Shown piece after piece: positions 8,901 to 10,887 of a stretch of 64,000 nucleotides of DNA. The DNA is taken from assembly GCF_003790525.1 (NCBI RefSeq), contig NZ_CP033635.1; one strand, given 5' to 3'. The notes below the pieces were generated by a model. That model was given only the letters and a program-made list of their open reading frames with translations. It was not told where the DNA came from and ran no database searches. A program made the position numbers and the translations under genes. The number at the start of each line of letters is the position of its first letter. Within the stretch, counting starts at the first letter, position 1. The DNA comes from Escherichia coli (lineage in GTDB: Bacteria > Pseudomonadota > Gammaproteobacteria > Enterobacterales > Enterobacteriaceae).

Positions 8901-9698
8901 AAAGTTGACAGCGTGAGCAGTGAAATCCGGCAGACAGTAAGCAGGAGCACGGAGGAGAACAGCCGACAGATAGCGCAGGTCAGGCAGTATGTTGATGATA
9001 AAAGTGCGCAAATAAGTACTGTTGTGGCGAAAAAGAGCGGTGAACAGTCAATGGCCATTGCGGAAGTTGACAGAAAAGTTGACAGGATGGGCAGCGAAAT
9101 CCGGCAGACAGTAAGCAGGAGCACGGAGGAGAACAGCCGACAGATAGCGCAGATCAGACAGTATGTTGATGATAAGGGAAGTCAGATCACACAGAGCACG
9201 GATAAAAAACTGGGATCCTGGAATGCCAGCATTGAGCAGATACAGAAAGTTCAGGAGGACACGCGCCGGAACCTGAACAGCATGTGGGCTGTGAAGCTGC
9301 AGCAGACACGGGATGGACGTCTCTATATTGCAGGTATTGGTGCCGGAATCGAAAATACGTCTGACGGAATTCAGAGTCAGATCCTGATGCAGGCAGATCG
9401 TATTGCGATGATTAACCCGGAAAATGGCAATACAACACCTTTGTTTGTGGCTCAGGGTGATCAGCTGTTCATGAATGATGTTTTCATGAAAAAACTGACC
9501 GTGGATTTTGCCAGAGTGACGGGAGATATCCGGTCAGATAATTTTGATTCCGGTAGTCCGGGGTGGCGTTTATCAAGAAACGGCAGCCTTGAAATTAACT
9601 CAGGAAGGCCCGGCGCAGGCCGCCTGTTTTTCAATGGCGAGCGAATCGACGTATATGACGATAACAATGTGTTAAGAGTACGACTGGGGAGACTGTAA
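5982..9698 (+). CDS. J: host specificity / central tail fibre protein J, with repeat-containing C-terminal region
   Basis: 1238-aa ORF after I; N-terminal part lambda-J-like; in-frame tandem repeats in the C-terminal third; C-terminus unlike lambda J. Confidence 0.9.
8520..8585 (+). repeat. 2 x 33-bp in-frame tandem repeat within J ([11 protein letters not shown] x2)
   Basis: ctggagaatgcgattaaccgcgaaatgacgcag occurs twice back to back. Confidence 0.9.
8676..9197 (+). repeat. 3 x 174-bp in-frame tandem repeat within J (58-aa unit [57 protein letters not shown])
   Basis: Unit starts at 8676, 8850 and 9024 (period 174); third copy slightly diverged. Confidence 0.9.
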
Positions 9699-9958
9699 TG
9701 TTCGGAGTCCGGGTATGGTGCAAAGGGCGCCTTGTGACACATGAAATAAACCCAACAGGGGTGCTGGATGTGATCACTGAAGGGACGGGGCAGCGTTCTT
9801 ATACTCCTTTGCAGGGCTGGCGTCTGGAAGTCTGTTCACCGGCCATTCTGATTAACGGTCAGGGAAGTCATACCAGTGCCAGTGTATCCGGCTGGACAGT
9901 GCACTATGCCAACACAAGCTGGCTAAGACCCGTGCTGGTCATGATAAGGGGGATCTGA
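9698..9958 (+). CDS. hypothetical phage protein, translationally coupled to J
   Basis: 86-aa ORF; ATG overlaps J stop (TAATG); no recognised family. Confidence 0.4.
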   Translation: MFGVRVWCKGRLVTHEINPTGVLDVITEGTGQRSYTPLQGWRLEVCSPAILINGQGSHTSASVSGWTVHYANTSWLRPVLVMIRGI

Positions 9959-10620
9959 TGTTTGCACTTAAATTAACTGATGAGCGGGGGAGAGAATGGA
10001 TATCACCTGTTGCGCCGCCACTGAACCTTGTGCGCCGTTTTCATTTCACACTGAGTGCGCGTGATGCGGTGATGCAGTTTATCGACACCGGGGTGCCGAC
10101 GAATTATCGTTGCGTGATTTTTATTAAACAGATAAGCGGTAATCAGTCCTTCCATGGTGAAATGGTTCAGCTTAACGGTACCTGGCAGTATGACATTTTC
10201 AGCGCTGGTACAGGGCAGGAGCCGGGCATGGAACAGGACAGCACATATGTTGTTTATGTTTTTGCCAACATGGTGAATGTATGGCCGCAATGGGGAATAC
10301 AGTTGTGCGACAGTCATGGCAGGGTGGTCTGGAACACGGAAATGCTGCCACTGGAAGTAAAAATGACGCGAATATGGGAAAAGGATGTACCGATCAGTGT
10401 GGGACATGATGTGGCCGTAATGCCGGGGTGTACCCAGTGGACGACAGTTCAGGAAGGGGAGAGTTATTACTGGTATACCGCCAGTTTTAATGCCAGAAAC
10501 TCACAGTTATGGCGTCAGTCAACTTTTGCTGAAGATAACGTAGCGGCGCCCAATGATAATTCAGGTGTTGTTAATAACCTCTGTTATTACATAAATGCAG
10601 AAATTTATGATGCGTACTGA
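9958..10620 (+). CDS. hypothetical phage protein (Trp/Tyr-rich, no signal peptide)
   Basis: 220-aa ORF; ATG overlaps preceding stop (TGATG); co-oriented with tail genes; not Lom-like. Confidence 0.5.
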   Translation: MFALKLTDERGREWISPVAPPLNLVRRFHFTLSARDAVMQFIDTGVPTNYRCVIFIKQISGNQSFHGEMVQLNGTWQYDIFSAGTGQEPGMEQDSTYVVYVFANMVNVWPQWGIQLCDSHGRVVWNTEMLPLEVKMTRIWEKDVPISVGHDVAVMPGCTQWTTVQEGESYYWYTASFNARNSQLWRQSTFAEDNVAAPNDNSGVVNNLCYYINAEIYDAY

Positions 10621-10641
10621 TAGTTATGTTGAGGGCATGTA

Positions 10642-10887
10642 ATGAAAATAATCGTCTGCACTTTTTTGCTGTTTCTTGTATCAGGTTGCGCGGGGTACAG
10701 TTCCGTTACGGAGAGAGTCCGGTGCACCGGTGTGCTGAGTCCCGGGGTTTTACAGCGAGCTTATACGGTAGATCTTACAGGGAAAATAGAAACGAAAAGC
10801 GGCACTGTGTATAAAGTATCAGCTCCGAGATTTTATGGTCAGTGGGTGAGTGAAGATATGTTTACGAAAGTTTCGTGCGTGAAGTAA
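10642..10887 (+). CDS. small lipoprotein, candidate Cor-like superinfection-exclusion protein
   Basis: 81-aa ORF with signal peptide and lipobox LVSGC; sits where lambdoid phages carry lom/cor morons; followed by a terminator. Confidence 0.5.
   Translation: MKIIVCTFLLFLVSGCAGYSSVTERVRCTGVLSPGVLQRAYTVDLTGKIETKSGTVYKVSAPRFYGQWVSEDMFTKVSCVK

Follow-up and report, generated by a model that had tools for sequence, protein, structure and literature searches.

The three genes that follow the tail-tip gene J in a lambda-like prophage of Escherichia coli probably form a host-recognition cassette of the phi80/HK022/N15/T1 type. The genes, here called orfA, orfB and orfC, lie in a stretch of 64,000 nucleotides of contig NZ_CP033635.1 (the window), and at the level of sequence the cassette is a very divergent copy of the module known from phi80, HK022, N15 and T1. 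The exchangeable unit comprises the last ~66 residues of J together with the three genes.

All the features described here are on the plus strand. J (5982–9698) encodes the tail-tip protein, or central tail fibre, of 1238 aa. The ATG of orfA (9698–9958, 86 aa) overlaps the J stop codon by one base (TAATG), orfB (9958–10620, 220 aa) overlaps orfA in a TGATG, and orfC (10642–10887), which starts MKIIVCTFLLFLVSGC and is located 21 nt 3′ of orfB, encodes an 81-aa precursor. The three lengths, both overlaps and the lipobox of the third product had been described in an earlier note on this DNA and were confirmed from the sequence. For orfA, the RefSeq and contig gene calls use a GTG at 9734, which yields 74 aa; the 86-aa reading is preferred because the 12 residues that it adds show conservation among the closest relatives and fit the N-terminal Y-G motif of the family. 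RefSeq lists two of the three cassette genes as hypothetical and omits the lipoprotein gene. Full-length homologues of each of the three, in the same order, are found in many phages, and orfA, orfB and orfC can be taken as real genes; antisense ORFs within the cassette gave no family matches in PHROGs. None of the three proteins matched Pfam, a PDB sequence search with each of them and with the orfB family profile returned no matches, and PADLOC found nothing. The earlier statement that none of the three was recognisable thus holds for plain reading and Pfam, but not for PHROGs, NCBIfam, profile–profile and fold comparisons, which taken together recognise all of them.

Downstream of orfC there is an intrinsic-terminator-like hairpin (10923–10948), consisting of a stem-loop at 10923–10938 (CCCGCA-ATTT-TGCGGG) followed by ATTATTTTTT. 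Its 6-bp GC-rich stem gives it the ordinary shape of an intrinsic terminator, and its folding energy of −12.1 kcal/mol for 51 nt (z = −1.5) is not exceptional; a terminator-like element is present where one had been reported, but calling it strong was an overstatement. Downstream, the module is bounded by the N-terminal part of a side tail fibre resembling lambda Stf (10960–11190), and the ORF that begins at 10960 shows PHROG tail-fibre matches of 1e-33 to 1e-36 and resembles lambda orf-401. IS256-like and IS66-family elements interrupt this side-fibre gene, with transposase ORFs at 11264–15155, and the module as a whole may therefore have fallen out of use. The tail operon upstream of the cassette is otherwise intact.

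J is a chimera, composed of the N-terminal part of lambda J and a T1/phi80-like end. Residues 1–836 correspond to lambda J with 93.7% identity (BLASTP), and the stf N-terminus is lambda-like as well, while the C-terminal ~400 residues of J are not. Lambda J has its own LamB-binding C-terminal domain (residues ~935–1132) and is followed by lom, whereas in the window J lacks this domain, no alignment covers that part of lambda J, and the three-gene cassette takes the place of lom. The last 110 residues of J align instead with the J termini of T1 and phi80. The fibre shaft contains a repeated 58-aa segment, probably a coiled-coil, encoded by a tandem repeat (8676–9175; 174 bp, 2.9 copies by Tandem Repeats Finder), and in strain TUM1886 J is 58 aa shorter (1180 aa).

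The exchange boundary lies at position ~9500. J-like DNA, present in 4,559 of 5,426 E. coli genomes, matches the window only up to position ~9492–9500, and the similarity to deposited phages likewise ends at ~9500. The last ~66 codons of J (9500–9698) are therefore the part that travels with the cassette, and they presumably encode the docking end for the downstream proteins. The J-terminal motif V.D..G..RV..GRL recurs in the 933W-like tip protein encoded upstream of a sister cassette. The swap of the J C-terminus that accompanies the cassette had been missed in the earlier note. A repeated hairpin motif that would connect orfA and orfB with the C-terminus of J was also considered and discarded, as the J part is too short for significance.

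The product of orfB, of 24.8 kDa, belongs, according to profile searches, to the “hand-like” family of phi80 gp23 and T1 Orf31 (PHROG 425, E 3.3e-27, over residues 1–218 of 220). A full-length alignment of 40 sequences of the family shows invariant Y100, F102, A153, I212 and Y217, and orfB carries the conserved core of the gp23/Orf31 family (Y-x-F, W-G..G, P-L, A, Y-I-x-T-x-x-Y-D), with variable segments at residues 81–100 and 161–200. It is rich in aromatic residues, as previously noted, with 9 W and 11 Y, and has neither a signal peptide nor a membrane segment (maximum Kyte-Doolittle value 0.88). Its AF2 model (pLDDT 88.5, pTM 0.87) has the same fold as a receptor-binding protein of solved structure, to which it is only 11% identical in sequence; Foldseek missed this link. 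Profile comparison by hhalign relates orfB to the Rtp44/DUF6453 family (93.2%, E 3.1e-7), although Pfam DUF6453 (PF20051) did not match it and it is shorter than the single chain of ~310–320 aa of that family. Since orfB is so divergent, both from the solved receptor-binding protein and from its homologues in deposited phage genomes (21–28% identity), the receptor is not transferable by homology; a word-indexed protein search with orfB retrieved its identical cluster, one relative at 52% identity and no others. From its modelled fold, orfB is a probable receptor-binding protein that would cap the J trimer.

The assignment of orfA is to the family of phi80 gp22 and T1 Orf32 (PHROG 557, E 8.5e-4), and it depends on family alignments rather than on pairwise similarity, which is not significant between orfA and gp22. 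Together with 10 family members, orfA forms a full-length 11-sequence alignment with a shared Y-G start, P19, L-D..T, S-G.K.Y, P.G..L and S-G-N-T.T. The protein of a sister locus, L009, ties it to the gp22/Orf32 family (E 3e-6), and orfA is 62% identical to this sister-locus protein, the first 12 residues included. It is also homologous to the N-terminal part of orfB (hhalign 95.7%, E 9.8e-9), and has no signal peptide or hydrophobic segment (maximum Kyte-Doolittle value 0.61). OrfA is a small, soluble all-β protein of 9.5 kDa, probably an accessory or adaptor of the tail tip. The absence of hydrophobic segments led us to reject orfA and orfB as membrane proteins. We also considered whether the two are a split version of the single-chain Rtp44-type receptor-binding protein, an idea based on their lengths (86 + 220 versus 311 aa) and a collinear profile alignment. 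It found no structural support, in what is a weak test given that the tail-proximal part of the solved receptor-binding protein is disordered, and orfA alone did not match Rtp44.

The third protein is a Cor-family lipoprotein, as its sequence profile indicates. It scores 28.7 bits against the NCBIfam Cor model NF047972, slightly under the curated cut-off of 31 (E 9.5e-7, 75 of 78 model positions), an E of 8.6e-7 against PHROG 1119 (Cor) and, in a profile–profile comparison of its clade with seven reference Cor proteins, 98.4% (E 4.8e-15, 75 of 81 columns); its full-length identity to phi80 Cor is 32%. The precursor is of the size typical for Cor (~75–90 aa), its lipobox is V-S-G-C with Ala at +2, and in the precursor MKIIVCTFLLFLVSG precedes the C. 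Cys28 and Cys79 align with conserved cysteines of the Cor proteins of phi80, HK022, T1, haarsle, Midgardsormr38 and Fostie, and the stretch PRFYGQWVSEDMFTKVSC fits the Cor C-terminal motif P-F..W-V-S..F...C. The gene lies between the gp22/gp23-type genes, which it directly follows, and the side-fibre gene, as cor does in lambdoid tail operons. A word-indexed protein search with orfC recovered near-identical copies only; nearly all full-length tblastn matches carry a Cor annotation, which rules against an Rz1-type spanin or a lipoprotein of an unrelated housekeeping family. The earlier suggestion of a Cor-like lipoprotein is borne out by these results. By analogy with Cor, orfC is a probable outer-membrane superinfection-exclusion factor that would act on its cognate receptor from the periplasmic side. 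The orfB–orfC interval of 21 nt, compared with ~110 nt in phi80 and HK022, leaves no room for a moron-type promoter, and no promoter-like site was found in it, so that expression of orfC in the lysogen is not evident. Classical Cor-type conversion needs expression in the lysogen.

Comparison with the cor regions of phi80, N15 and HK022, which the earlier note had proposed, reveals the same exact gene order. In phi80, J is followed by gp22 (100 aa), an overlapping gp23 (224 aa), cor, an annotated terminator and an stf-like fibre, as in the window, and this order is also that of HK022, of Erwinia phage Midgardsormr38 and of phage Fostie. The loci described as the “Cor cassette” (PMC13164509) encode proteins of ~90–100 aa and ~212–224 aa and a lipoprotein of ~77–81 aa, of the same families as those in the window. 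Identity between phi80 and the window is 21% for orfB and 32% for orfC, and, unlike in phi80-type loci, orfA of the window overlaps the J stop codon. Phages of the phi80 type use FhuA. In the virulent phages T1 and haarsle the same three families (Orf32, Orf31 and Cor in T1) lie beside the J homologue, with 22–23% (orfB) and 29% (orfC) identity to the window, but cor or the whole trio is on the opposite strand. Theirs is the FhuA-type “bona fide RBP locus” of Drexlerviridae and Dhillonvirus in BASEL, whose allele predicts which receptor is used. A gp23-type gene follows a gp22-type gene, which follows a J-like (Phage_Tail_Tip) gene, in the window and in every related locus examined, and JenP1, Sp5/PhiR5_2 and several metagenomic loci have the pair but no Cor gene. 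The proposal that the first two proteins are tail-associated, host-range proteins is supported by this placement of the gp22/gp23 and Orf32/Orf31 homologues, by the absence of signal peptides and by the receptor-binding fold of orfB.

The cassette is present in 9 of 5,426 complete E. coli genomes, and all three ORFs are intact and 99.7–99.9% identical across these nine unrelated strains. A sister cassette is found in 933W-like short-tailed prophages (loci L008–L011), and the trio of L009 is the closest known relative, with 62% (orfA), 52% (orfB) and 48% (orfC) identity and the same stop/start overlap; the three proteins have diverged in step. Among themselves the 933W-like tip proteins share 90% identity, whereas their orfA- and orfB-type alleles share only 25–32%. 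The J C-terminus is thus conserved across different cassette alleles, which indicates that specificity varies in the orfA- and orfB-type proteins and not in J. Sp5, 933W and Phi24B carry ORF72-ORF73-ORF74 (the last being Lom-like), with the orfA and orfB types directly after a J-like tip that ends in the same C-terminal motif. The virion of these Stx-type phages differs, having a short tail and a giant protein of 2,790 aa, and the classical Stx phages have Lom instead of the lipoprotein and BamA as the reported receptor. As a side observation, the loci L014 and L015 encode small TonB_C proteins.

Two further systems show the same division of labour. In the LptD module, studied by cryo-EM (PDB 9rpt and related), a receptor-binding protein (Rtp44/RBP_Oeko) encoded beside J acts on the extracellular face of the receptor, and a small exclusion lipoprotein, Rtp45, on the periplasmic face, where it blocks binding of the receptor-binding protein (bioRxiv 10.1101/2025.07.07.663478). 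That receptor-binding protein is a single chain of ~311–319 aa without an orfA-type gene, its module is convergent to J, and Rtp45 has at best marginal similarity to orfC. In T5, pb5 is a separate receptor-binding protein located on the central fibre's tip, and the periplasm-facing lipoprotein Llp inactivates FhuA; an Llp-like predicted fold has been reported for Cor (PMC13164509), while a sequence relationship between orfB and pb5 was not found.

In the mechanism that we propose, J, devoid of the LamB-binding end, would not itself bind the receptor through its short conserved C-terminus. OrfA and orfB, produced with J from the late tail transcript by means of the stop/start overlaps, would be soluble virion proteins. 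OrfB, anchored through its conserved core and N-terminal elements, would cap the J trimer at its end and bind an outer-membrane protein through residues ~81–100 and ~161–200, triggering irreversible adsorption, whereas orfA, a paralogue of the N-terminal element of orfB, may serve as adaptor or assembly partner at the J–orfB junction. OrfC, like Cor and T5 Llp, would inactivate that same receptor by binding to its periplasmic face, a block that would keep out phages of the same specificity and stop progeny from adsorbing to cell debris. The J end and the three genes would be swapped as one block, also between long-tailed lambdoid and short-tailed 933W-like phages. By analogy, our best guess for the receptor is FhuA or another TonB-dependent transporter. 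It is also conceivable, although we hold it only tentatively, that this allele and its 933W-like sister recognise a protein other than FhuA, new as a receptor for the module, with a matched Cor-type blocker, and that the set of J end, adaptor, receptor-binding protein and blocker is portable across virion types.

Published work on this type of locus is consistent with such a role. In the BASEL collection, the loci downstream of gpJ track receptor specificity with no exceptions (PMC8594841), and FhuA is the receptor of all 10 BASEL phages that carry the complete Cor trio (PMC13164509); in a screen of 255 phages, four families at the locus each track FhuA, BtuB, LptD or YncD (bioRxiv 10.64898/2026.04.02.716166). 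In AF2-multimer models the “hand-like” protein of 23 kDa sits on the J trimer as a monomeric cap, in contact with FhuA or BamA (PMC12309495). Tentative support for presence in the virion comes from a Pseudomonas phage, in which SDS-PAGE showed a band of roughly the expected size. The distal end of J is not resolved in the in situ structure of T1, and for the T1 cassette a 2026 paper reported no structural hits (PMC13164509). In Sp5, a short-tailed Stx2 phage, ORF72 (92 aa) and ORF73 (205 aa) were singly deleted in frame, and they are not among the nine genes required for plaques or lysogenisation on K-12 (PMC5155283), so these homologues of orfA and orfB are not essential for that phage on K-12.

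This dispensability would also fit orfA and orfB as assembly chaperones for the distal part of J that are absent from the finished particle, the receptor being bound by the J C-terminus or the side fibres. A structural or chaperone-like role was named as possible by Matusiak et al. (PMC12309495), and the two genes do lie, translationally coupled, between the tail-tip and fibre genes. However, near-constant 933W-like tip proteins accompany strongly diverged orfA- and orfB-type alleles, the alleles of the locus track receptor use in the two large phage collections, and the fold of orfB is that of a bona fide receptor-binding protein, and we consider the chaperone role improbable. Lower still is the likelihood that orfA and orfB act in the host as partners of Cor in superinfection exclusion and are not virion proteins. 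Their types co-occur with cor in FhuA-dependent phages (PMC13164509), PHROG files family 425 under “moron / host takeover”, and the Sp5 result can be read in the same way. Lacking an export or hydrophobic segment, however, neither protein can reach the envelope by the usual routes, and a low membrane affinity was computed for proteins of these types (PMC12309495); moreover, the orfB fold is that of a protein shown to bind its receptor from the cell exterior, and the orfA–orfB pair is found without Cor but never without a translationally coupled upstream tail-tip gene. That the cassette is an inactive remnant of a degraded prophage, as its rarity and the interrupted side-fibre gene might suggest, is very doubtful given the intact and nearly identical ORFs in nine unrelated strains, the intact upstream tail operon, the infectivity of laboratory lambda without functional side fibres (PMC8594841) and the fact that a Cor-type lipoprotein can help the host even from a defective prophage.

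The host-recognition cassette has consequences for how such loci are read. [quoted passage not shown] The occurrence of the same cassette on short-tailed Stx-type phages bears on the spread of Shiga-toxin phages. This rare allele may represent a new receptor specificity that comes with a blocker of its own, which, if true, could serve phage engineering and explain lysogen resistance. Should the receptor indeed be a protein other than FhuA, the module would amount to a natural cartridge for both host range and immunity, portable and functional across virion types.

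The three-gene cassette that follows J in the window's prophage is a divergent form of the phi80/T1-type tail-tip module, comprising an adaptor-like protein (orfA), a probable receptor-binding protein (orfB) and a lipoprotein of the Cor superinfection-exclusion family (orfC). This supports the interpretation of the earlier note, which had proposed tail-associated or host-range proteins together with a Cor-like lipoprotein, and the ORF reading of the window confirms the coordinates and features claimed for the three genes. J occupies 5982–9698 and its stop overlaps the ATG of orfA (86 aa, start 9698; TAATG), whereas orfB (220 aa, start 9958) begins at a TGATG overlap; orfC (81 aa, 10642–10887), which begins MKIIVCTFLLFLVSGC, lies 21 nt after orfB, all on the + strand. 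A hairpin and T-run follow at 10923–10948, ahead of the N-terminus of a lambda stf-like fibre ORF (start 10960). The hairpin, previously described as a strong terminator, is ordinary in shape and not unusual in its energy. In RefSeq, orfA and orfB are hypothetical and orfC is without any annotation. Both RefSeq and the contig gene calls give a 74-aa version of orfA, but the 86-aa reading is preferred, because relatives conserve the 12 additional N-terminal residues, which also fit the family motif. In the related locus of strain TUM1886 (L001, NZ_CP128970.1), RefSeq/PGAP starts orfA at an internal GTG (74 aa) and omits the 81-aa Cor-like lipoprotein gene.

None of the three proteins had been recognisable from the sequence alone; this holds for Pfam, which returned no match to any of them, but not for PHROGs and NCBIfam. 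The full length of the orfB product is covered by a match to PHROG 425 (E 3.3e-27), the match of orfA to PHROG 557 is weak, and orfC matches the Cor families of both collections, with an NCBIfam score slightly below the NCBI curated cut-off. Since Cor-like genes can fall just under this cut-off, many genomes may lack their annotation. Identity to the homologues in phi80, HK022, Midgardsormr38, Fostie, T1 and haarsle is 21–28% for orfB and 29–32% for orfC (against Cor), and the pairwise similarity of orfA to phage homologues is only marginal. Despite this divergence, alignments and profile comparisons establish membership of the respective families at the sequence level: a full-length alignment of 40 sequences for orfB, an alignment of 11 sequences for orfA and, for orfC, a profile match of its clade to reference Cor proteins (98.4%, E 4.8e-15), in which the lipobox, two further cysteines and a C-terminal motif are kept.

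The family alignment yielded a confident AlphaFold2 model of orfB (pLDDT 88.5, pTM 0.87). A Foldseek search of this model against the PDB gave no match. As modelled, orfB has the fold of the solved LptD-specific receptor-binding protein (Rtp44/RBP_Oeko type, whose partner is the lipoprotein Rtp45), and the orfB and Rtp44 families match in profile comparison (93.2%, E 3.1e-7). The conserved parts of the orfB family are an N-terminal element, a central core and a C-terminal strand, and variability is highest at residues 81–100 and 161–200. The N-terminal ~55 residues of orfB are homologous to orfA (95.7%, E 9.8e-9). Neither protein has a signal peptide or a hydrophobic segment, which contradicts their PHROG labels and a proposed action in the envelope.

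The same architecture is found in other phages. In phi80, J is followed by gp22 (100 aa), the overlapping gp23 (224 aa), cor (77 aa), a terminator and an stf-like fibre, the order of the window, and the arrangement recurs in HK022, Erwinia phage Midgardsormr38 and Fostie; the proposed comparison with the cor regions of phi80 and HK022 bears out the likeness. T1 carries Orf32, Orf31 and Cor, whereas in phage haarsle all three families are present but convergent to J. In deposited phages, orfB homologues always lie beside a J-like gene, with a ~92-aa gene ahead.

The J protein of the window is chimeric. It is 93.7% identical to lambda J over 836 residues and divergent beyond, with no counterpart of the LamB-binding end of lambda J, and its last ~110 residues align with the J termini of T1, phi80, haarsle and JenP1. 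Of 5,426 complete E. coli genomes, 4,559 contain J-like DNA and only nine carry the cassette; the similarity of the J-like DNA, as of deposited phages, ends at window position ~9500. This break and the rarity of the cassette indicate that the mobile unit consists of the last ~66 J codons plus orfA, orfB and orfC. J also contains a 174-bp tandem repeat (8676–9175; 2.9 copies, 96% matches) and a 33-bp repeat (8516–8593; 2.4 copies), which encode a repeated, probably coiled-coil, fibre-shaft stretch. The TUM1886 J is shorter by exactly one repeat unit (58 aa), so fibre length varies with repeat copy number among otherwise near-identical prophages. Downstream, in the region 10960–17439, an IS256-family transposase gene (11264–12472, − strand) and an IS66-family element (12531–15155, − strand) break the stf-like side tail fibre gene after ~76 codons; the fibre gene resumes at 15218–16849 and is followed by a fibre-assembly-like gene (16864–17439). 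The side fibres of this prophage are therefore probably non-functional.

The orfB family is small, with 41 representatives among 1.84 billion in exhaustive searches. Close relatives of orfB number only two, one from a word-indexed search (52% identity) and one from the exhaustive search (P0006, 50%). The former belongs to a sister cassette in 933W-like short-tailed prophages (L008–L011), immediately after a 421-aa tail-tip protein and with the same stop/start overlap (orfA 62% identity, lipoprotein 48%), so that one cassette type serves long-tailed and short-tailed phages. The tip protein of this locus shares 90% identity with its counterpart in a phage that has a quite different orfA/orfB-type allele followed by Lom, which indicates that cassette alleles are swapped behind a near-constant tip protein. 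In L009, a hok/gef-family toxin gene (7217–7357; 46 aa, PF01848) lies directly 3' of the Cor-like lipoprotein gene, where classical Stx phages have their Lom-like gene; in L008, the upstream 541-aa tail gene is replaced by an IS with an rve-family transposase. The window's clade has a third allele (L012, GCA_013129555.1, 4244–5154; orfB 50% identical, orfA L009-like), which follows a lambda-like J. The contig ends 323 bases beyond this pair, a stretch in which no lipoprotein ORF can be seen, and the pair may thus also occur without a Cor-like gene.

In the BASEL collection, the locus that follows gpJ has allelic variants that match each terminal receptor, and separate receptor-binding proteins with cognate exclusion proteins were proposed to be encoded there (PMC8594841). 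A screen of 255 phages confirmed that the locus encodes four unrelated families, with specificity for FhuA, BtuB, LptD or YncD (bioRxiv 10.64898/2026.04.02.716166), and the LptD pair was solved by Dunbar et al. (bioRxiv 10.1101/2025.07.07.663478). The KanT1 paper, which coined "Cor cassette" and lists T1, HK022, N15, ES18 and phi80, found the full trio confined to FhuA-dependent phages within BASEL; it obtained no structural hit for either upstream protein and guessed that the two were part of the exclusion mechanism (PMC13164509). In the models of Matusiak et al., a small protein and a 23-kDa "hand-like" protein are the missing tip components, the hand-like monomer capping the J trimer and contacting FhuA or BamA (PMC12309495). 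Against an essential role, the Sp5 homologues ORF72 and ORF73, deleted individually, were not among the genes needed for plaques or lysogeny on K-12 (PMC5155283). Although the window cassette is strongly diverged from FhuA-specific alleles, FhuA may still be its receptor, since the Cor proteins of phi80 and T1, both FhuA-specific, are themselves just 37% identical.

Two distantly related cassettes, L015 (5260–5556, + strand) and L014 (5196–5453, − strand), differ in the gene after the orfA/orfB-type pair, which in Cor's place encodes a small secreted protein of 98 and 85 aa, respectively, composed of a signal peptide and a TonB C-terminal domain (PF03544). PADLOC gave no match to these proteins, and a literature search on TonB, superinfection exclusion and prophages found no paper on such a protein. 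Its position hints that the cassette family generally targets TonB-dependent transporters. By occupying the TonB box of a TonB-dependent receptor, the protein could act as a periplasmic decoy; if true, this would be a different way of excluding TonB-dependent phages. The interest of the cassette rests mainly on the receptor question, on its exchange between virion types and on the correction of its annotation.
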